Of a DNA stretch of 64,000 nt, positions 7,967 through 51,077 are shown in pieces. Source of the DNA: Patellaria atrata CBS 101060 (taxonomy: Eukaryota). The stretch covers positions 2,033,561-2,097,560 of the forward strand of contig MU006089.1 of the NCBI GenBank assembly GCA_010093705.1. The letters run 5' to 3'. The notes beneath the pieces were generated by a model that saw only the letters and a program-made list of their open reading frames with translations, made no database searches and was not told the DNA's origin. The first letter of the stretch is position 1, and the number at the start of each line of letters is the position of its first letter. The translations under genes and the position numbers were made by a program.

Positions 7967-9496
7967 CTACGCATAAAGACTAATGATCTCCTTCTTCTTG
8001 CTCTGCACCTCCGCAATCGCATCGACATAATTCTCGTGATTGATCTTCGACTGCCCGCTCCTCAACGCAATCATACCCGCTTCCACACACACAGCCTTAA
8101 GCTGGGCACCACCGAACTCATCCGTACTCCGTGCCAACTCATTCCAGTTAACTGCCTCATCCACCGTCATCTTCCGACTATGGATCCTGAGAATCTGAGC
8201 ACGTGCCTCTTCGTTGGGAAGCGGGAACTCGATCTTCCTGTCCAGACGGCCTGAACGGAGCAGGGCTGGATCGAGCACATCTACACGGTTGGTGGCGGCG
8301 AGCACTTTGACTCTGTCGTCAGAGGCGAAACCGTCGAGCTGATTGAGTAGCTCCAACATGGTACGTTGGACCTCACGATCACCGGACTTCTCGGAGTCGA
8401 AACGTTTTGTACCAACAGCGTCCAGTTCGTCAATGAAGATGATGGAGGGTGCTTTTTCTTTCGCCAGAGCGAAGCAGTCTCGTACGAGCTTCGCACCGTC
8501 ACCGATGAACATCTGTACGAGTTGAGGTCCGGCGAGCTTGAGGAAAGTAGCATCTGTTTGAGCGGCGCAGGCACGGGCGAGGAGGGTTTTGCCCGTACCG
8601 GGAGGACCATACATCAACGCACCTGTAGATTAAGATTAATAAACTACACTAAGAATATGAGAAGGAACTGGCATTACCCTTAGGTGCCTTGATACCGATC
8701 TTCTTGAAGCGTTCTGCTTCCTTCATCGGCCATACAACAGCCTCTACAAGCTCTTCGATCTGCTTGTCCAGCCCTCCTACATCGGTATACTTCTCTGTTG
8801 GCTTTTCATCAACCTCCATTGCCTTCACTCTGCTGTCGTACTCAGCGGGAAGTGTGTCTAGTACGAGGTAGGAGTCCTTATTAACACCAATGAGATCACC
8901 AGGTTTGAGCTTCTCGTGGTCGACAAGGCCGATGAGGGGAAGGAAGATGGTTTGTCGGGTAGATGTTTTGATAACGGCGGATTTACCAACTCGGGTGGCG
9001 TCAAGGTCGATGTTAGCGCCCTCTTCTACCGCTTCTGCTTCGACGTCTAGATTAAGGATTTCAACGACATTACCCACTAGGTATGGTAGTTGCCTGTAGA
9101 AATTGAATCAGACATCTTTCCGTATTGAATATCGGGCACAGATCACGCCCGTAAAGCATAACCAGCGAGTTCGAACGCATACCTGTTATTTTCTATCTTC
9201 TCCAGATTATCCTTTATCTTCTCTAACATCGTCGCTTTCTCGTGCATTAACCGCTGAAATTCGCTCCTCATGATTCTAGTATCATTCTCTAGTAACCGCC
9301 TCCGAGCAACGATATCTCTTGTGCTTGAGTTAAGGATCTCCTCATCTATGCCATCTTCCTCCTTCTCTTCGGCAGCATCCTTCATGTCTGTATCACCATT
9401 CTGTTCCGACTTCTTTCCATCTTTGTCATCGCCACCTTGCTTCTTCTTGTCCTCGCCTTCGCGCTCGAGATCATCAAGGTCTTCCAGTGTGGACAT
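7967..9496 (-). CDS. RPT5: 26S proteasome regulatory subunit 6A (AAA ATPase), 3 exons
   Basis: N-terminal [26 protein letters not shown], Walker A GPPGTGKT, Walker B IIFIDE, and C-terminal HbYX motif (LYA). Introns at about 9182-9094 and 8677-8623. Confidence 0.96.
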
Positions 9497-40566: not shown

Positions 40567-42512
40567 ATGTTGTCGACAGAAGAGAAAGAGCAACATACTA
40601 CACAGGTAGAGCAAGTCACTACCAATGATGCTTCAACCCAAGATGCGGACGAGCCTGACGCAGAGATCACATTCAAGACCAAGATGGCTATTCTAGTAAG
40701 ATTGATAAGTTTTTGGTCTCGATTGGGTATTGTGCTGACGTGAATATAGTCTCTGATCCTAATGTACGAATCCTACCTGTTTACTTTGATTATGCCGGCT
40801 GCGGTGTTAGCATATATCAATGCGGACCTGGGACCAGATCCCAACTACGCTTGGATTTCTATCACATGGGTAAGATTTTAGCCCGCTAATACGCCTGTAA
40901 TGCTCCAAGCTTACAGAGAACAGAACCTTGGAGCTGCTATCATTGTTACAGTAGGGGGCCGTCTTGCCGACATCTTTGGGAGAAGATGGTTCCTACTTTT
41001 CGGATCCATATCGGCCGCAATAGGAGCACTGGTCGGGGTAACCGGGCAGAGTATTCCGCAAATGATAGTTAGCGGCGTAATCTTCGGTATCGGAGGCGGT
41101 TTTCAGGAGATGTGTTTCGCTTGTGCCCAAGAGTTAGTACCGAACAAATGGCGGTTTGCAACTTTAGGTGAGTATATCAGTACATCCAAATGCAGGTGTA
41201 TCTAATTTTGAGAATAGGTGTCATGATCATGGCAAATCACTTCTCCTCAATATCTCCCATCCTCGGTTATGTCTTCATCACTTATACAGGGATCGGTTGG
41301 AGAGCTTGTTACTGGTGGTGCTTCTCCTTCGAGGTGCTCACAACTATCCTGCTCTTTTTCTTCTATGATCCTCCAAGCTTCCGTACTAAGCATGAAGATG
41401 ACCACAAGACAAAGATTCAGCTACTCCTTGAGCTGGACCACGTCGGACTCTTCCTTTTCGTGGCTTCATGCTTATTGCTTCTGCTCGGACTGAGCTGGGG
41501 CGGTGGTCTTCGTCCATGGAAAAGCCCGGCGGTAATAGCACCAATCGTCATTGCTGTTGTGGGTTTCGTCGCACTTGGATTCTGGGAGGTGTGCGCGAAT
41601 CTGAAGTACCCCATCTTACCGCCGAAGCTTTTCCGCAAATGGCGCGAGTTCACTGCTCTACTAGTAGTCTGTTTCGTAGCCGGGATGTTATATTACAGCA
41701 TGAATGTGCTGTGGCCTCGCCAGTCTAGCCTCCTTTTCATTCCTGCAGGCGATACCATCATCCGTGGCGTCTATGCTAATATGGTGTCCTTTGGAACTGT
41801 TATCGCAGGTTGGTATTGTATTGGTGTTATGCCTTGGGTTGGTCATGAGCGAATACAGCTTATCTGCTTCATGATTGGACAGACAGCCCTTATTGGATCT
41901 CTCTCGAGCGTAGGAATCGAAGACAAAGCTCAGGCCATTGCAACGGTCATCATTGTCTCTGCTCTTAACTTGCCACCGTCGCCGTTATCCTTTGGTATGG
42001 TGAGCTTAGGACTCGACGATCAGGCAGATATGTATGCTTAAACCCTTAACTCCTACATTCAAGCCTAACTTTATTTCAGTGGGGTGGCAGTTGGCCTAAT
42101 CAGCACATTCCGTTTGATTGGCGGTGCAGTGGCGACGGCTATCTATACCTCGATATATACCAGTCGATTCTCAAAATTGATGCCCGGCAAGGTTACAGAT
42201 GCAGTGGAGGAAATTGGATACGATGGACCGATCCCAGACCTTTTGCGCGCTGCCTCTCTCAATACTGCAGCAGCTTACGCTACCCTCGAAGGCGTGAGTT
42301 CGGAAGTACTAGCTACGGTCCAATTAGCAGTAAAGCAAGCATATGTGGAATCTTTCAGACTCGTATATCTTGTAGCAATTGCGTTCGGTGTCTGCGCGAT
42401 CTCCGCAGCAATTTCAACAAGGAGTGTTGATGTCAAGAAGAAGTCTAATGAACGTGCGGTTCAACTCGAAACTGAGATGAAATCTCATCGCCATCATAAA
42501 GAGGAGGCATAA
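40567..42512 (+). CDS. MFS transporter, TRI12-like fungal efflux pump family, multi-exon
   Basis: INADLGPD, VGGRLADIFGRRWF, ELVPNKWR, GWRACYW, FYDPPSF, LDHVGLFLF, AYVESFRLVYLVAIAFG. Confidence 0.92.
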
Positions 42513-42719
42513 ATTCAGTTTCACTGGTTGTTTTTCAAAATATGTATGTAAAGCACAGCTAGTGAGGCTCGTGACTTCTAGAGAGAGTCGAAGTATGGAA
42601 TATACGCATGGAAACATATTCAAAGCCAGCTTATTCTTGAATCAATGACTATGCGAGTTTGCAAAGGTGTTCAACCACCGGTTGTTACCTATGACCAACG
42701 GAAACGCCTTATATCACTG

Positions 42720-43949
42720 TCATTGAGATGGCGATGCCACTTTTTCCGTATATGGAGGCGGTACATCCTCGTTCGGTTCTCCTTTGATATTGTCTTTTGC
42801 TGCTTCCTCTTCTTTGCTCTTCGCCGCTGAAGTTTCCTTCACACGGACACTTCTGTGTTTCTGTTTTCTGGAAAATATTTCACCTAGCATGGTAAGACTT
42901 AACCTTCGAGACGCATTGTTCAAGTCCTTTGCTTGCTCAGTGTTCTCCGTGACTGGCTTCTTCTCCGGATTTCCGTCTTCTAGTAAGCTTTTTCTTCTTT
43001 TCTCCATGTGGTCAAATGCAAATTTCCGTGTGAACCACTCTTCTTCTTTCATATATTCAGCTTGCATCAACTTTCCTGCGGTAAATGCTTTTTCAAGAAT
43101 CTTCCTATCCATATCGATGGTTTCGTTCATCTTATTCCATTCTTTCCCATCGATGTAATCCTGAAGAGTACTTTTCCAATTAAAATTGGGGTTAGGTGAG
43201 TTGCAACAATCTACAAAAGTCCTATTTAACAGTAGTGCCCTCTCATATTGTGTTCCCTCGATTTCCATCTCTGCCAAAATATCTTTATTAACACCTGGAA
43301 AGATTGGTAAACCGGGATTGTCGCCCTCCAATAGTGCTTCCGGCGTTGACAACATCCACACGACAGGTTTACTGTTCCTAGGCTTGGGACTTGTGCTAAT
43401 CTTCCGACTCGCTCCTGATTTACTGTTGTTATTGATTTTTGCGTTATCGCTAGATCCAGCCCTTCTTGCGATAATGTTCGACCGCATATCGTCAAAATAC
43501 TCGAATATTATAGCGGCTTTCACCAATTGTGAAATATTGACCGCGGCGATTCTTGTTGAAGCACTTTTCTCCAGCGAGCCAAAAATCCGGTTCCAATGCT
43601 CATCTAACTCATTCGAAAGAGTCTCGAGCTTGACAGAGAGTCGCTGAATATCAGCAATATCAAGTGCCTTGTATGAATCATGATATGTCGTAACCGTTTT
43701 GGTGAGTCGTGTCTTAAGAGCTGGTGTCAGATACGGCGACTGGAGTAAGATTGTGTAACGGTTCAAGCGGATAGTTATGAGCAACTTAAGTGAGTCAATC
43801 GTAGGAGCCTCTTCGGTGCATTTCCTGACAGATTCCTTTTTGCCTTCTTCAGCAGAGTCAGATGCAGATTGTCTTTCTGTGTCTATAGTAGATGCATTGT
43901 TATTTTTATCGCTTGTGGCATCAGGACTGCTGGTTTGATCTTCTTGCAT
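42720..43949 (-). CDS. Hypothetical protein (helical, low-complexity ends, C-terminal PPPY); start uncertain
   Basis: Open frame of >400 codons with no recognisable domain. Confidence 0.55.
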   Translation of the reverse strand: MQEDQTSSPDATSDKNNNASTIDTERQSASDSAEEGKKESVRKCTEEAPTIDSLKLLITIRLNRYTILLQSPYLTPALKTRLTKTVTTYHDSYKALDIADIQRLSVKLETLSNELDEHWNRIFGSLEKSASTRIAAVNISQLVKAAIIFEYFDDMRSNIIARRAGSSDNAKINNNSKSGASRKISTSPKPRNSKPVVWMLSTPEALLEGDNPGLPIFPGVNKDILAEMEIEGTQYERALLLNRTFVDCCNSPNPNFNWKSTLQDYIDGKEWNKMNETIDMDRKILEKAFTAGKLMQAEYMKEEEWFTRKFAFDHMEKRRKSLLEDGNPEKKPVTENTEQAKDLNNASRRLSLTMLGEIFSRKQKHRSVRVKETSAAKSKEEEAAKDNIKGEPNEDVPPPYTEKVASPSQ

Positions 43950-44540
43950 AATTCCTTCTAAATATTTAGGCACCTTCCATATACTCGACCGTGATAAGGG
44001 TTAGATTGATCGTTGCGCCTTGTATATAACTTCGAAACCGGAAAATGTGGCCACGTAATTGTGCTTGTAGGCGAACACTGGGTTTGTAGGGGTATGACAT
44101 CGTAACCCTCAGCCGGTTTCCGCCCCCATTCCTGCCGTGCGATGATTTGGTGCTCCTGCAATGCAGTCAGTCGATCAGCTATAACGTACGATACAGTTAC
44201 ATTGTTGTTGATTTGTATTTCAGGAAAAGTTGGAGCCTCCTGCGAAGACTACTCAGCCTCGCTGCGTTGTCAGGCAGCTACATAAAGCTACATAAAGTCA
44301 AGAAGAGTACTGGGGTGTTCGTTTCACTTGGGAAGATGGCAAAATCTACAGTATTTATTATGTAGTGAGCGAGCCAAAGCTCATGATATGATACTTGTAT
44401 AATCTTCCTAACACCCACCAGAGCTTTAGTTCTACAGTAAGTTAACCGTTGTCGAGTGTCGATCTTTAGCTAGAACTAGTTCTATAACGAGTATAATCTA
44501 ACCCTGGCTTGGGCTGCCCTTAGCTCTCTCTCTCTCCTCC

Positions 44541-46283
44541 ATGGCAGGTCCTCGATCTTTCGGAAACCCGTTATTGTATCGAAATTGGAACAACATCCTG
44601 CAATGCATCGAGGTCAAGGGAACAAAACAACTGAAAATAAGAGGAAACTATACAATACCATCTAGAACTATATCCTCCAACCAACGACGTCCGTACCAGA
44701 CGGATACTCTAGACTCGAAGAATACAGCTCGAACGAGTCGACTATGGGCTCTTGCAGTATCATTACCTCTATTTGCTGGCGTATGGTTCTATACAAATTT
44801 AGATAACCACAGCGACAAGTATAATTCACTACAATTGCTGTCTTCCTCGGATATCGTTCGCTCGCTCAACGAGCAACTACAGGAAAAGGAAAAAGAGGCG
44901 TTGAGTATCAAGGCAAAGCTTATTAGCTTAGAAAATGAGCGGAAAAGTTTGCAAGACCAAGTCAAGACTGGGGAGGAGAAGCTGAAGGAACTCGGTGCTG
45001 AATTTGCACTCAAAACTGAGGAGATCAAACAATCTGCAGCAACTATAAGCTCAAGTCAACAACGAGTACATGAACTTTCAAATCAGACAAACCAAGACGC
45101 TCAAAGAATCCAAAGTCTCAGCAACGACCTCGAGGCGAAATCAGTAGCCAATAAAGATCAAGAGGAGCAGCTGCAAAACGAGAAATATCAAAAAGCTCAA
45201 CTCGAAAAGGATATAGAAAGCAAGACCGCGTCGATTAACAGCTTACAAGCGTCGAACAGTACCTTATTTGATCGGACCCGGGTCCTTCATACGCTGGCTC
45301 TAAACCTCCTTACAACCCCCAACTTGCACGACTTAGTAAGCCTAGAGAAGGAATATATAGAAGCTCATCCTATTGAGCTTCCCAACAACCGCAGTCTGAC
45401 GGCCGAGGCCGTAAATCTCTTCCGGTTGGTTGACGCCGAGGGTAAAACACGTGCTCTCATTCTTGAGCGCGTAGGGGACGACAATAAGGACCTCGAGGAA
45501 GCTAATGCACTAATGGCATGGGTCTCCGAACGTACGCGTTCCCTTCTCGCCGCGAACCAGCTCAGCAAAAATGGGTTCGCCGGGCTCATATACTCCGAAA
45601 ATTGGTTCGGTATGGGCGACATGATCTCACCACTGCGGGTATGGGACCGCAGTATCCTGCCCTCGATCAAAGAGCGTATCAAAGCACATACTTCTAAGAG
45701 TGGGAAAACTAAGACTCTGGCCGACATCTTACCGGGCAGTGTCCCACGTCCGGGTTATCATCGCGCACTGGTGAGAGCGAAATTGTACCCTCACCAAAAG
45801 CTAGATACAGAAGGTACAGATGTCATGGTTGACACGGGAGCGTCGGTGACGTTGATAGACCGCAGTTTGATCCCACCGGACAATGCCACTGTCCTACGAT
45901 TGAGCGTACCGGTGACACTTGCTGGGTTTAACGGATCTATGTCGACGGTCAGTGAAGTGGTACAGTTGACCCTCACCATCGAAGGCGAACGGGGTGAGAG
46001 TGGTAGGGCTTCTACTGAGATCAACACCTTAGCGTATGTGATGGATGGTCTGGGGACCAAGCTAATCCTAGGGTTAGACACGCTGGGGAGAGCGGAGGCG
46101 ACAGTCGATGTAGGGAAACGAACTCTAAGGATCAAAGACACAGTAGCTCCCTTGGACTTCGAAGCAGTTGCTCAAAAGCCCGAGGTGCCGGTCCCGATAG
46201 GCCCAGAAGCTACACCTGGTGCCGGTGAAGGAGACGGAAGAGTAACAAGTGAAGAGGGAAATATTCCTACCAAGCAAGGATAG
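44541..46283 (+). CDS. Chimeric protein: basic presequence-like N-terminus, TM helix, coiled coil, C-terminal retropepsin-like aspartic protease
   Basis: Intact 580-aa ORF with TM segment LWALAVSLPLFAGVWFY and a heptad-rich Q/E/K region. Protease motifs VMVDTGASVTLID (D at 45831), VTLAGFNG and LILGLDTL. Confidence 0.8.
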   Translation: MAGPRSFGNPLLYRNWNNILQCIEVKGTKQLKIRGNYTIPSRTISSNQRRPYQTDTLDSKNTARTSRLWALAVSLPLFAGVWFYTNLDNHSDKYNSLQLLSSSDIVRSLNEQLQEKEKEALSIKAKLISLENERKSLQDQVKTGEEKLKELGAEFALKTEEIKQSAATISSSQQRVHELSNQTNQDAQRIQSLSNDLEAKSVANKDQEEQLQNEKYQKAQLEKDIESKTASINSLQASNSTLFDRTRVLHTLALNLLTTPNLHDLVSLEKEYIEAHPIELPNNRSLTAEAVNLFRLVDAEGKTRALILERVGDDNKDLEEANALMAWVSERTRSLLAANQLSKNGFAGLIYSENWFGMGDMISPLRVWDRSILPSIKERIKAHTSKSGKTKTLADILPGSVPRPGYHRALVRAKLYPHQKLDTEGTDVMVDTGASVTLIDRSLIPPDNATVLRLSVPVTLAGFNGSMSTVSEVVQLTLTIEGERGESGRASTEINTLAYVMDGLGTKLILGLDTLGRAEATVDVGKRTLRIKDTVAPLDFEAVAQKPEVPVPIGPEATPGAGEGDGRVTSEEGNIPTKQG

Positions 46284-47286
46284 CGCGTCGGGGAGCGGTC
46301 CGTACTATGTATTGGCATATTGCTAATTAGACTCCACCCTCGAGCTCTTTGGCGTGCGGCGATATATTAAATGAGCTACACCGCCAAATCGACGAGCACT
46401 TCTCCACTGCTCCATGCATTCCATTCTAATACACGTGTCACTCCTACTCTCGATCCTTCAACAGCAGAAATATGACGCTGTAGTGCATAACATAGAGTAT
46501 ACCGCAGACAGCCCCTAGAGAGGTCCTCTGGAGTAGTTCCCGAGAGGAGCCCACCGGAGCAACCCCATATCTTCCCTTGCCACGTTCCGCACTCCTCGAC
46601 TGCTCTACGCTTGCTGTGCACCTTTCGGTGGACACTCGAATCAGATCTCCACAATGGTTCTGAGTTATGTGCGAAAGGGCATTATACAGCTTATAGTCAG
46701 ATGTACCAGCGGAGCCGAAGACCGCGGGCAGGGCAAGCATACAGTGACCCTAGAAGTGCCACTGGCAAGGGAAAGGGAGAGAGCAGCCTCATGGAGCACC
46801 TATCCGAGACCTTAAAACATTTCACGGATTCTTGTGGGGCATCCCGCAGCATCTCACGCGACATTCTCTACAGCGCCCCGCAGAATATGCGTTGCCGTTT
46901 GCATATGAGTAGTTGCAGTGCAGATATGGGATTTGGTGAATAGACAAGGGTGTTTCGCAAAACGTGCCGTAGAGGGGTTCGTAGAATATGGCATGGAGAC
47001 TATCAGGATCACCCGTAGATCAAATCTAGCCAGTGGATTATTGCTGCGCCATAGTTCAATGCTGTTTGTGCAGACGGTGCCCATACTAGAAATGGGGATC
47101 GCCGATAGCATGTTTACGAATCTCAAAGGTGAAGGCGGTCTGATAGCTAGAAGCTATTGATTGGGAATCCTTTATTTTTCATTAAGAGCATCTACGTTGC
47201 TTGTGCATTTCCTGACATACGAGGCACATAGCTAGTCCCTTCAATTAGGAATATTGAGACTTGAAGAACCCCCCTCACGTGATTGC

Positions 47287-48634
47287 TCACTCATAGACAT
47301 AGCAAAATGGCCCATCAACCACACTAGTCAAGTCCCTAATCTTATACGTCTTCCTATTGACCCCGACGACTTCTAAATCAACAATGTCATCCAGACTCTG
47401 TTGCCTACCACCGCCAAACATGCTAGTGCCACCCGCAATCTGGTTCATCCTGGTCTTCAAGTCTTGAATCTGCCAGATATACCAGACGCGGTCGATCATG
47501 GAGTGGAGCAGCCAGAAAGCAGGGTCGCCAGGAGAGACGTAGAAGTCGGAGCCAGGGTCGCCGGAAATCGTAAAGTGAGCGGCACCGTGAACGCCATCGC
47601 CAGCTTGCATGCGGTCCTGGAAAGGTCCGACGCTAGCTGCATTTTGAATCAGCTTCACGATGTCGGACGTCTTGGTATAGCGCTGGGTGAGCTGGTTGGA
47701 GAGGTCGCGACGAAGGCAGCGCGGGTTGTAACCGAATCCATCCGAACGTGGGTTTGGCGGTGGTGCGGGTTGAGCCTGAGTTGCGCCGGGTACGGGGCCG
47801 AGATTGACAGTGAAGCTAAGAGGTGTTAGTGTTATTGCAAACGGTGAGTTGAAATATAAGCCTACTTCTTGAATGGTCCTGACAAGACACAACCTCCGCC
47901 GTTTCCTGCAGGCGCGGTGAAGGTCCCTTGGTGAGCAATCTTCTCTCCGTTTCCACTCATACTGGTGTCCGAGCCATCAAAGATAGGAGACGTCTCAGGG
48001 TCCGCTGCCCACATTCCCCAATCCCAGTACTAGATGGAATTAGACCCTAGGAAAACGGTGATGGGAAGGCAATAACCTTACTGGTTGAGTTCCTTGGTAT
48101 CCGCACTCGGTCCGTAAGGCCTGTTCATATGCCCATGTGAAATACCGGTGCCATGTAAGGAAGCTACCCTTCATAGACAGTCAGCAAGAGTACTTTCGAG
48201 TATGAGACGTTGAGGGGTAATGGACTTACAGTGCCGTGAATAGACATCGTCTGTTTCATGTGGACAACGACAAAGTCGTCATACCTAGTTTTGGCGCCAG
48301 GATACTGTGTTGCGTCGAGCTTCGACGGGCTAGCGATCAAGCAGTGAACAGCGGAGATGTATGCTTTTCGCTCAGTAGCAGAAAGTGCACTCCTAGAAGG
48401 TCTTGGGTTAACAAGACTGTTTTGATAGGCACATGCTCAACGATATTTGGATCTAGCTTACCATTCCTTTCGGACTTGAAGATTTGCCTTATTACACGTC
48501 GTCGAGCTAGCGAGCTGTGCGTCAAGGTTTGGCCTGCCCTTAGTTGCAAGATCCGCCACAGCATCAGCTAGGCAGAAATCCAACAAAGAGACGAACAAAA
48601 GCGCCAGACGAGGGAGCGAGGTGGACCACAACAT
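47287..48634 (-). CDS. Secreted short tyrosinase / polyphenol oxidase (di-copper), multi-exon
   Basis: Signal peptide and VRKEW. CuA site HMKQTMSIHGT|GSFLTWHRYF, then QYWDW and RCLRRD. CuB site GVHGAAHFTISG...SPGDPAFWLLHSMIDRVW, ending CYVYE. Confidence 0.92.
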
Positions 48635-49846
48635 CTTGACGGAGGAGAAACTGAACAAGAACGACACCTTCAACACTGTAAAAAGAACTTAGGACGAAGA
48701 TAGGGAACTCATTATATACTATCCCCTGTATACTAGCACTGCAATGACTGCTGTATAATGAGATTTGCCATGCGGTAAATCTTGCAGTGCCACATGGTTT
48801 GGAGCCTCAGACGCAGATTGTGACACTTCACAGATATTGCTCTTTGATGGCATTGAATGAAGCGTAAGGGATGAGTAACATTGAAAGAGGGCAAAGTCTC
48901 ATGCTGTATCCTTGATGGGGATCATGTGAAGAAAGAATGCTTAGAGTAAGAAGGGTGCTTGATAGGCTATGAGTATGAGATATTTGCTTTCCAAACCAGT
49001 GGTGGCTAACGGAACCTGAAAACAGCATGGGTATGTATGAGATATGCTCTATGAACGAAACGGAAAGCCCTATGGTGCTATTAAGGCTGGGTAATGTACC
49101 AATCAAACCTTTGGCGAATATAATCTACGATGGGTAAGCCGCTCAAGCCGAAAGATTTCGCTGTTAACCAGTTGACGTGGAAGAGTATATGCCGCCAAGA
49201 CTGATTCGGAGGATACGCAAGATCCCAAAACAAGGATACAAGTCAAGAAATAGTATATTCACGGTTGCGGGGTAAGAGACTTGATACTACCAGTGCAGGG
49301 TAAAAACGTGGAGTTTAGATGAGGCCGCAGCCAGGTAGTGGGCGCGTGCATAATCTGGAATGAGATCCAATTACAATTGTATGAGTGGCTCCTCAAGCGA
49401 AAACCCGCTGTGAACTCAAAACATTCAAGAGCTTGTAGGACGTAAACAGATGAAAAATTACAAGGTGTGTATGTCGATCCAACGTGAGATATATGGAAGA
49501 GCGCACTGGCCACATCCTCCCACCGGCTGAATATATAGGGTAATATTTTAACAACACATACCTTCTTTCTATCCACGCTGTTTTCTTTCAACACGGCATA
49601 CGAAACGGCAACCCGTCATGTCCCTACGGTATGTAGATAATATATCTCGCCAAACTTTGTGATGGTGTGGACTTAGTGAGAGGATGATCAGTTCTGAATT
49701 CGAATTTGTCTGCTGTTTGCAACAGAGAGGGACAATCTAAGCTTTATCAATATTTTATTATATTAGCTATCAGCTATTCATGCAATGAAACTTTATTCAA
49801 AAGGTATTTCATTGCTTACCGCTGTTCAAGAACACGAGATTAACTT

Positions 49847-51077
49847 CTACAAGTGTCGAAAACTCTCATCCTGTACCGTACTGTACCCTGGGATGAAAGG
49901 AGATGACTGGAGGTCAATATCTTCCACCGCATCTGCAAAATCTCGTAGAAACCTCCATCTCGCAATTTCTTTGTATTTTTTCTCCTTCCAAGCATTTAAC
50001 GTCTGGGGAAAGAAACCCAGTATGCCCAGTAAACTTTGGTCGTGCGCCATTGCTACCAGCACATCATCATTCGCGTCAAATTCTTCACAACCTCGCACAG
50101 TCCAAGTAGCTTGCTCTATATCCTTGGGGAAATCTGGTGCAATTTCGTAGAACGGCTCGTCAGCTTTCCTTTTTGGATGCACCCTTTGCAGCAACGAGCC
50201 AGGACAGACACTATGCCGTTCTGGCATCGGATTGGGTTCAATCGTCGTAGGGAGGGGCAAATATTCTGTAGGTCTAAACTCGCCACCATGGTGACAGCAA
50301 TCCCCGCCCATGAAAACGAACGTGTCTGGGTTGTTCGTAACCCGCGCTAAGCCAGCCATGTGGCCAGGAGCATGGCCTGGGGTATCAAGAAGGTAGAAGC
50401 TCCCGTCGCCGAAATAGTCAAAGGCGTTGAAACGACCAATCTTTAATTCTCCCTTTTGCTCCGAGAAAGAGATTTCCCGGAAGTTGCGGTCCTTCCAATA
50501 GGCTTCACTGATAGGCGAGTCTGGATTGGTAGGGTAGGCAGGAAGCAATGCTTCTTTAAAGCCAGGACCTACCACCAAGTCGGTGGAAGAAGGAAAAGTG
50601 CTTACATCGCCGATATGGTCCCAATGATGATGGCTGAGTATAATCGCGTTGATTGAGTCTAGGGATACCCCATTATCCTCGAGAATCTCAGCCACATTCT
50701 TGTCGACGTGTACTTTCCAGCTGTTTTTGGTAATACGATTGACGATGGATGGAGTAAGGTTATTCCAGTCCTTGCGTACACCAAGGTCAAAGAGTAGCTT
50801 CTGGCCTGAATGATGTTGAATTAAGAACGAGATCGCTGGCCCTACGAGCCGTGTTTTGCCTTTAATTTCTGGAAGCAGGAATACATTAATAGGCAAGTCT
50901 ACATGAGCTGTACTGGATGAAAGTTAGCATTCAGTTGCACTATTGCGAGTGGGTGACGTGACTAGGCGTGATCCCTACATACCTATCAATGATCGAAACA
51001 GTGATAGTGACCGAAGACTTCGGGATGTTGAGCCTAGGGGTTTCTCTTGGTGGGACGAGGAAATGATTTGAGGTCAT
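49847..51077 (-). CDS. Metallo-beta-lactamase-fold hydrolase (AHL-lactonase-like fungal family), 2 exons
   Basis: LLFDLGVRKD, SHHHWDHIGD (HxHxDH), DYFGDGSFYLLDTPGHAPGH, GGDCCHH, AMAHD. Confidence 0.92.

Follow-up and report, generated by a model that had tools for sequence, protein, structure and literature searches.

A 580-codon open reading frame (ORF) on the forward strand of a contig of Patellaria atrata CBS 101060 (assembly GCA_010093705.1, contig MU006089.1, positions 2,033,561-2,097,560) encodes a predicted membrane-anchored protein with a retropepsin-like protease domain near its C-terminus. We refer to the whole 64,000-nt stretch that was analyzed as the window, to the window's own protein of 580 residues as P0001, and give all coordinates as positions within the window. 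An earlier reading of this DNA from its letters alone, hereafter the sequence-only reading, had described an intact and intronless ORF at 44541..46283, and both its coordinates and its frame were reproduced. The features of the locus are as follows:

44524..44540, forward strand: pyrimidine (CT) tract of 17 nt, read from the sequence, which abuts the start codon
44541..46283, forward strand: ORF for P0001, intact and intronless, 580 residues, stop codon included
44541..44744, forward strand: N-region, residues 1-68, basic, Ser/Thr-rich, acid-poor and presequence-like, modeled as disordered
44745..44801, forward strand: putative membrane anchor helix, residues 69-87, the 19-mer of P0001 with the highest Kyte-Doolittle hydropathy (mean 1.29)
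44826..45275, forward strand: predicted coiled-coil stalk, residues 96-245, proline-free and heptad-patterned
45288..45737, forward strand: middle domain, residues 250-399, modeled as alpha/beta, family-specific, containing the invariant F346
45753..46163, forward strand: retropepsin-like domain, residues 405-541, with a family-profile score of 137.4 bits, weak Pfam matches and a fold match
45831..45839, forward strand: predicted catalytic D431-T432-G433, invariant in 8/8 aligned family members
46173..46280, forward strand: C-terminal tail, residues 545-580, Pro/Glu/Gly-rich and predicted to be disordered (predicted local distance difference test score, pLDDT, below 50)

The frame is closed by an in-frame stop 13 codons upstream of its first ATG, and fungal genes are often closely preceded by CT-rich tracts such as the one abutting this start codon. 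At the stop-triplet frequency of the window (0.0465), the probability of 580 codons staying open by chance is about 1e-12. The composition of the ORF is host-like, with a GC content at third codon positions of 0.496 (nine other long ORFs range from 0.377 to 0.622) and an overall GC content of 48.7%, free of AT enrichment.

The C-terminal region carries three motifs diagnostic of retropepsins, namely VDTGAS at residues 430-435, LAGFNG at 460-465 in the predicted flap and LILGLD at 507-512. The sequence-only reading had recognized a complete retropepsin module from these motifs, and this part of it stands. The domain spans about residues 405-541 and is followed by 39 residues, compared to the about 45 of that reading. 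It had also pointed to profile hidden Markov models of two Pfam families, gag-asp_proteas and Asp_protease_2; both match P0001, although below their curated cut-offs (PF13975, 23.2-23.9 bits against 28.2; PF13650, 20.9-21.8 bits against 24.3), as does RVP (PF00077, 15.2-16.5 bits against 20.7). The RVP cut-off is passed by 7/9 members of the family described below (22.5-33.5 bits), the exceptions being P0001 and the truncated P0005, so membership in the retropepsins holds at the level of the family. A search of the PDB with the family profile recovered the proteases of Rous sarcoma virus (RSV; 9.3e-5), yeast Ddi1 (1.4e-4), ASPRV1 (2.3e-4) and human T-cell leukemia virus 1 (HTLV-1; 4.8e-3), and aligned the GFGG flap of the family onto the GIGGG of RSV protease. 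In a predicted model of residues 241-580 (mean pLDDT 68.6) the protease reaches about 75-88. When this model was used in Foldseek searches, the RVP domain of Ddi1 was the best match (E 5.2e-6, TMt 0.67) and retroviral proteases came next; there were 38 matches at E <= 0.001, and all rows listed at that level are retropepsin-like domains. VIA-align against 48,161 chains likewise placed Ddi1 RVP at Z 12.4 (rmsd, the root-mean-square deviation, 2.7 over 110 aligned residues), the proteases of feline immunodeficiency virus (FIV) at 9.9, xenotropic murine leukemia virus-related virus (XMRV) at 9.8, HTLV-1 at 9.1 and human immunodeficiency virus (HIV) at 8.7, and the bacterial RloA2 (9g59) and Rickettsia APRc (5c9b) at 8.2 and 7.8, respectively. 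The retropepsin fold was found again in BFVD, in proteins of caulimovirids, retroviruses, giant viruses and phages, a spread that does not discriminate between origins. Feature matches of 0.84 in the Atlas were to clusters of aspartyl proteases of the transposable element (TE) type, and being below the 0.9 bar serve as leads only. Together, the models confirm the C-terminal domain of P0001 as a predicted retropepsin fold with all three hallmark motifs.

We then consider the distribution of this protein. An exhaustive phmmer search with residues 241-580 against 1.84 billion representative sequences yielded 27 hits at E <= 1e-3, the parent of the query included. The protease profile splits these into nine family proteins, P0001 among them, scoring at least 137 bits and 18 others scoring at most 63 bits; the truncated P0005 was counted as family though its protease stub scores 16 bits. 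The eight relatives are 19-31% identical to P0001, and three of them, P0002 (589 residues), P0003 (561) and P0004 (553), retain its full layout: the basic N-region and the hydrophobic helix come first, a variable linker leads to the conserved middle domain, and the protease is followed by a low-complexity tail. The fourth, P0005 (342 residues), ends inside the protease and retains the N-region, helix and middle domain. The DTG is present in 8/8 aligned members and followed by Ala in 7/8, whereas the flap motif G-[FL]-[GN]-[GA] and the G-x-D are each present in 7/7 of the members that cover these parts. Such retention of motifs at this level of divergence is as expected of an active site, and conservation of the layout at the same identity suggests that it has long been maintained by selection. 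To judge from these alignments, the P0001 family is small, old and fast-diverging, and has been selected for its catalytic motifs. The three full-length relatives, and the truncated fourth with the same layout up to the start of its protease, correct the earlier view of a new gene, as the protein is not private to this genome. Word-index searches of 5.8 billion clusters, to which we give little weight because two of them saturated at 8000 candidates, listed nothing beyond the query itself, except for P0004 when the profile was used, and among the matches listed they gave no second copy of P0001 in the predicted proteins. In metagenome contigs, the pattern of the closer sub-alignment A3 was matched 204 times, with zero confirmed relatives. 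A further family member, P0010 (403 residues), is without the N-terminal anchor, and the flap strand of its protease is separated from the ILG motif by an acidic, low-complexity insert of about 60-90 residues; from its sequence it could represent either an erroneous gene model that includes an intron or a real soluble variant. Outside the family, P0008 and P0020 have a C2H2-like zinc-finger stretch at the N-terminus in addition to an Asp_protease_2-type domain, and could be host or TE-derived retropepsin proteins of a different kind.

The N-terminal half of P0001 has the succession of basic N-region, single transmembrane helix and coiled coil that the sequence-only reading had described, which is borne out by composition, hydropathy, heptad contrast and the predicted model. 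The 68-residue N-region holds 12 Lys+Arg, 3 Asp+Glu and 13 Ser+Thr residues, and its amphipathic 18-mer has a hydrophobic moment (muH) of 0.48, a value reached by 1% of the windows past residue 100. The anchor helix has a counterpart in P0002-P0005; across P0001-P0005 these helices lie at approximately residues 49-90, with a highest mean hydropathy over 19 residues (KD19) of 1.29-1.87, and are of moderate hydrophobicity with Gly and Pro present. Residues 96-245 have a heptad contrast of 0.437, compared to 0.271 +/- 0.039 in shuffled sequences (0/500 shuffles equal it). The AlphaFold model of P0001 has helices at residues 65-167 and 173-258, and coiled-coil families in Pfam give weak matches only. 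At the other end of the protein the tails of the relatives, like that of P0001, are of low complexity, and they are not conserved.

Between stalk and protease lies a region that the sequence-only reading had taken for an unknown helical one; it is instead modeled, at a pLDDT of about 70-84, as an alpha/beta domain that is conserved within the family and peculiar to it. It contains F346, the sole invariant residue outside the DTG in the family alignment. The corresponding profile scores 165.6 bits on P0001 and matches 8/9 family proteins, P0001 included, with only the fragment P0015 excepted; it matches none of the 19 other collected proteins, TE polyproteins included, below E 0.01. No match to this domain was found in Pfam, a PDB profile search or the Atlas, and VIA-align with model residues 7-146 gave at best Z <= 5.7 (sex-pheromone precursor domains, Cdc45 and Exo5), which is within noise. 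We regard it as a candidate for a new fold or function specific to this family.

Based on the conserved layout, the invariant motifs and the modeled fold, we consider it very probable that P0001 is the product of a real, selected gene for a membrane-anchored member of the retropepsin family. With more modest confidence we favor, as the full explanation of the locus, a host gene of a filamentous fungus for a membrane-tethered retropepsin-type protease of mitochondrial location and retroelement origin. A number of points weigh against this explanation. Each relative is a single sequence, on a contig of 3-39 kb in a Logan/ENA assembly. P0001 falls under every curated Pfam cut-off, and its flap reads GFNG where its relatives have GFGG. 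Both structural models (mean pLDDT 68.6 and 63.3) derive from 8-row alignments and are of moderate confidence only. The sequence of the stalk is not conserved, with P0003 and P0004 having an acidic, partly non-helical linker and a shorter helix, and the stalk may thus serve for spacing no less than for dimerization. The two sequencing runs that contain the locus (X1 and X2, from one sample of one study) include none of RNA; each spans 41000-49000 in one contig with zero differences, and being probably DNA, and possibly the source of the window, they are uninformative on expression. Finally, across 44001-46993 the dinucleotide indices of repeat-induced point mutation (RIP) are the strongest in the window: TpA/ApT is 0.99-1.05 (0.99 in the ORF) and falls in the top 2.4% of 250 windows; (CpA+TpG)/(ApC+GpT) is 0.96-1.02 (0.97 in the ORF) and falls in their lowest 0.4%. 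The frame is nonetheless intact, and both classical RIP thresholds are reached by 23/250 windows, ordinary genes among these; the indices could be the trace of an old, mild RIP or merely reflect amino-acid composition.

The evidence regarding subcellular location comes mainly from the N-termini. A presequence followed by a stop-transfer helix is a known pattern of mitochondrial inner-membrane proteins. Using our own heuristics, we find that the first 40 residues of the 5/5 members that have an N-terminus are Ser/Thr-rich and contain 5-8 Lys+Arg against 0-2 Asp+Glu, and that 4/5 possess an amphipathic 18-mer with a muH of 0.48-0.51, which is reached by 0-5% of windows elsewhere in each protein. 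Soon after this presequence-like region comes one moderately hydrophobic helix, an arrangement that a type II signal anchor would show as well. We tentatively take the mitochondrial inner membrane to be the likeliest single site of P0001, though at somewhat less than even odds. The assignment has to contend with the N-terminus of P0004, which is not amphipathic (muH 0.28), with E24 within the first 40 residues of P0001, and with the usual preference of aspartic proteases for acidic compartments, for which a secretory or vacuolar site is a better fit than the intermembrane space.

The best-surviving alternative, which we consider somewhat unlikely, is that the same protease belongs to a type II signal-anchor protein of the secretory pathway, residing in the endoplasmic reticulum, Golgi, vacuole or at the cell surface. 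Its basic N-tail would then be cytosolic, and the coiled coil and the two domains after it would face the lumen or the outside. A basic N-tail and a single transmembrane helix are the layout of such proteins too, and aspartic proteases generally work at acidic pH, as found in the Golgi, the vacuole and the outside. Moreover, E24, D55 and D58 make the N-terminus of P0001 a poorer presequence candidate than the N-termini of P0002, P0003 and P0005. P0001 also has 7 N-x-S/T sequons for N-glycosylation, but this count is within chance (5.1 +/- 2.0 expected), none is conserved and P0004 has zero. Further, P0001 has one cysteine and the family no conserved one, an uncommon situation in domains exposed to the lumen or the cell exterior; the amphipathic, Arg/Ser/Thr-rich N-termini of 4/5 members and the weakly hydrophobic anchor helices with Gly and Pro (KD19 1.29 in P0001) likewise speak against a signal anchor.

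As to the origin of the protease, the genomic context of P0001 is that of a host gene amid ordinary fungal genes and not of a transposon. A scan of 34000-56000 for direct repeats of at least 40 bp, as a check for long terminal repeats (LTRs), gave 0 families. Reverse transcriptase (RT), RNase H, integrase, Gag and CCHC domains had no match in the 12 neighboring ORFs (106-529 residues) or in 40 stop-to-stop frames of at least 70 residues between 40.1 and 53.0 kb, hand-picked from 57 listed, and the Pfam families of these domains had no match in P0001 at E <= 1. The sequence-only reading, which had seen no CCHC knuckle, RT, RNase H, integrase or LTR nearby, is thus upheld by the repeat scan, the 12 ORFs and the 40 frames; it had also allowed that the N-terminal half might prove to be a Gag or that LTRs might be present, and neither was found. 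We rejected a Gag origin of this half, which has no Retrotrans_gag or zf-CCHC match and whose middle domain is modeled as alpha/beta, not all-helical, and does not occur in any TE polyprotein that the phmmer search matched.

The neighboring genes include those for a short-chain dehydrogenase/reductase (SDR), AtuA, a TRI12-type transporter of the major facilitator superfamily (MFS), a tyrosinase, a metallo-beta-lactamase fold, FMN_dh + Cyt-b5 and an amidase. Upstream, a divergent 409-residue ORF (42720-43949, reverse strand), Ser/Lys/Glu-rich and without a Pfam family at E <= 1, lies about 590 bp from the protease gene, with which it shares an intergenic region, and the TRI12-type MFS efflux transporter extends over at least 3 frames (exons) at 40882-42512 on the forward strand. 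Downstream, the next gene, apparently intron-split, is marked by an exon-like frame at 47287-47976 on the reverse strand with the central domain of tyrosinase (E 4.5e-22), and the metallo-beta-lactamase-fold ORF is at 49847-50923, also on the reverse strand. With its MFS, tyrosinase, SDR, AtuA and metallo-beta-lactamase ORFs, the neighborhood resembles one of secondary or catabolic metabolism, with no link to the protease gene shown.

We propose that the protease module was probably derived from a Ty3/gypsy-type retroelement, and at the origin of the family rather than in the P. atrata genome. Six of the 18 non-family matches are tied to Ty3/gypsy elements. In four of them (P0016, P0017, P0021 and P0022) the link is an RT, RNase H, integrase or chromo domain; P0011 clusters with the 2087-residue polyprotein P0028, and P0027 matches the Ty3 peptidase family. 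These findings partly sustain the capture of a TE protease envisaged in the sequence-only reading, given that Ty3/gypsy polyproteins are among the nearest non-family sequences and UBL or UBA domains are lacking; on the other side, the best structural neighbor is the RVP domain of the cellular Ddi1 rather than a retroelement protease, and therefore TE capture is not proven. Likewise, because TE proteases are very numerous, a best-of-many effect favors matches to them.

This structural match is the foundation of a second alternative, in our estimate quite unlikely, whereby the protease descends from a cellular retropepsin-like gene, a duplicate of the Ddi1 RVP domain, that gained a new N-terminal half. 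Ddi1 RVP domains take ranks 1-12, 14 and 17 in the Foldseek search, they exceed the best retroviral protease in VIA-align (Z 12.4 against 9.9), and the family profile scores Ddi1 (24.2 bits) and RSV protease (24.8 bits) about equally. However, the Z-scores may reflect an extra helix and domain size rather than descent, and the Ddi1-type Pfam model PF09668 matches 0/8 members at E <= 1, although HMMER filters may hide very weak matches, whereas RVP and gag-asp_proteas each match 7/8 of the same members. Furthermore, the motif is DTGA here as against the DSGA attributed to Ddi1; no ubiquitin or UBA family was found in P0001 at E <= 1, and UBL/UBA domains occur in 0/18 of the non-family matches, as opposed to the six with Ty3/gypsy links.

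More improbable still is a pseudo-protease, in which the fold would be kept as a module for dimerization or binding devoid of catalysis. The substitution in the flap of P0001 (GFNG for GFGG) and its Pfam scores, weaker than those of its relatives, are in line with such a loss, but the DTG in 8/8, the following Ala in 7/8 and the G-x-D in 7/7 members despite 19-31% identity are not. Least probable by our reckoning is a decaying relic or chance-conserved ORF, that is, an old retroelement remnant or fast-evolving orphan of no present function, which could account for the failure of the word-index searches to return a close relative (only P0001 among the matches listed), the sub-threshold Pfam matches of P0001, the extreme RIP-type indices (2.4% and 0.4% of 250 windows) and the lack of an RNA run among those containing the locus, but is at odds with the chance of about 1e-12 for the open frame of 580 codons, the multi-domain layout and invariant DTG kept at 19-31% identity, the want of LTRs and of pol or gag remnants, and a GC content of 48.7% that is not AT-enriched in a window where ordinary genes too are among the 23/250 windows meeting both RIP thresholds.

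Returning to the membrane-tethered, retroelement-derived protease that we favor, its mode of action can be pictured as follows. The active site of retropepsins is built from two chains. Each chain of P0001 has a single DTG, and hence two chains must pair for one active site, as in all retropepsins. With a parallel coiled-coil stalk just past the anchor, two chains would be kept side by side, which would favor the pairing of the proteases. The middle domain may be a substrate-recognition or a regulatory (pro-)domain, and, together with the flexible linker at residues 398-406 (pLDDT below 50), might gate or direct the enzyme. By analogy with ASPRV1, autoprocessing is conceivable. As for topology, the presequence-like N-region would be imported until the moderately hydrophobic helix became lodged in the mitochondrial inner membrane, and everything from the coiled coil through the middle domain to the protease would be exposed to the intermembrane space. 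In its most complete form this scenario would make P0001 the first mitochondrial retropepsin, derived from Ty3/gypsy, domesticated in a small fungal group, anchored in the inner membrane facing the intermembrane space, dimerized by its coiled coil and paired with a hitherto unseen alpha/beta domain that selects or gates substrates; we offer it as a speculation that is unlikely to hold in every part.

Few cellular proteins keep only a retroelement-type protease, and each has been informative on regulated proteolysis; an independent fungal family would widen this list. The P0001 family would furthermore be a compact model for the cellular control of a dimer-dependent viral protease, and, were the mitochondrial location true, would represent a new protease class in the quality control and processing of the intermembrane space. 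That said, the family is tiny and rapidly diverging, and its proposed role as a protease comes from sequence and model. The sequence of P0001 is already in public protein databases. We found no description of a fungal membrane or mitochondrial retropepsin in the full-text literature, a provisional result as most subscription journals were outside the search, nor any described conserved family with this architecture, which the sequence-only reading had raised as a possibility. Hence, membrane anchor, coiled coil, middle domain and retropepsin provisionally constitute an undescribed combination of domains. In its accessible part, one survey gives DDI (Ddi1/Ddi2), NIX-1/NRIP and SASPase (ASPRV1) as the eukaryotic single-domain non-viral families of clan AA, mentioning fungi for DDI only and with the word transmembrane absent (PMC2642776), whereas another, in the portion available, concerns pepsin-type PF00026 proteases only (PMC13414439).

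Comparison with known systems places the P0001 family among several kinds of retropepsin-like proteins. Rickettsia APRc and Pseudomonas RloA also position a retropepsin fold at the membrane or envelope (Z 7.8 for 5c9b and 8.2 for 9g59), and the Asp_protease_2 (PF13650) match of P0001 can be counted as a likeness to bacterial retropepsin-like proteases. However, these proteins have other N-terminal parts, are without the coiled coil or middle domain and are weaker matches than the eukaryotic and viral ones; no bacterial signature was identifiable among the phmmer matches, which come without names or taxa. The Ty3/gypsy proteases (chromovirus, Tf2-like) share the DTGA and ILG-type motifs with P0001, and P0016, P0017, P0021, P0022 and P0028 are among its nearest non-family sequences. 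In contrast to them, Gag, CCHC, RT, RNase H, integrase and LTR are missing at the P0001 locus, the middle domain is missing in their polyproteins, and the family protease profile gives at least 137 bits for the family as opposed to at most 63 bits for the Ty3/gypsy polyproteins. Ddi1/Ddi2, the best structural match, are like P0001 cellular non-TE proteins with a single retropepsin domain, but P0001 is without UBL/UBA, PF09668 matches 0/8 members of its family, and it has the anchor, coiled coil and middle domain; Ddi1 is also soluble and widespread (PMC2642776), whereas the P0001 family comprises only 9 clusters. Finally, ASPRV1/SASPase is a host gene product that has retained nothing of a retroelement but its protease, as is proposed for P0001; in both the domain lies close to the C-terminus, and the profile match is 2.3e-4. 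Full-length ASPRV1 is reported to undergo self-proteolysis (PMC11402058), providing a possible analogy for P0001. Unlike P0001, it is mammalian, skin-expressed and about 280 residues long (PMC2642776), and it is without a coiled coil or middle domain of the P0001 type. With no evidence of orthology between them, ASPRV1 and the P0001 family look like independent domestications.

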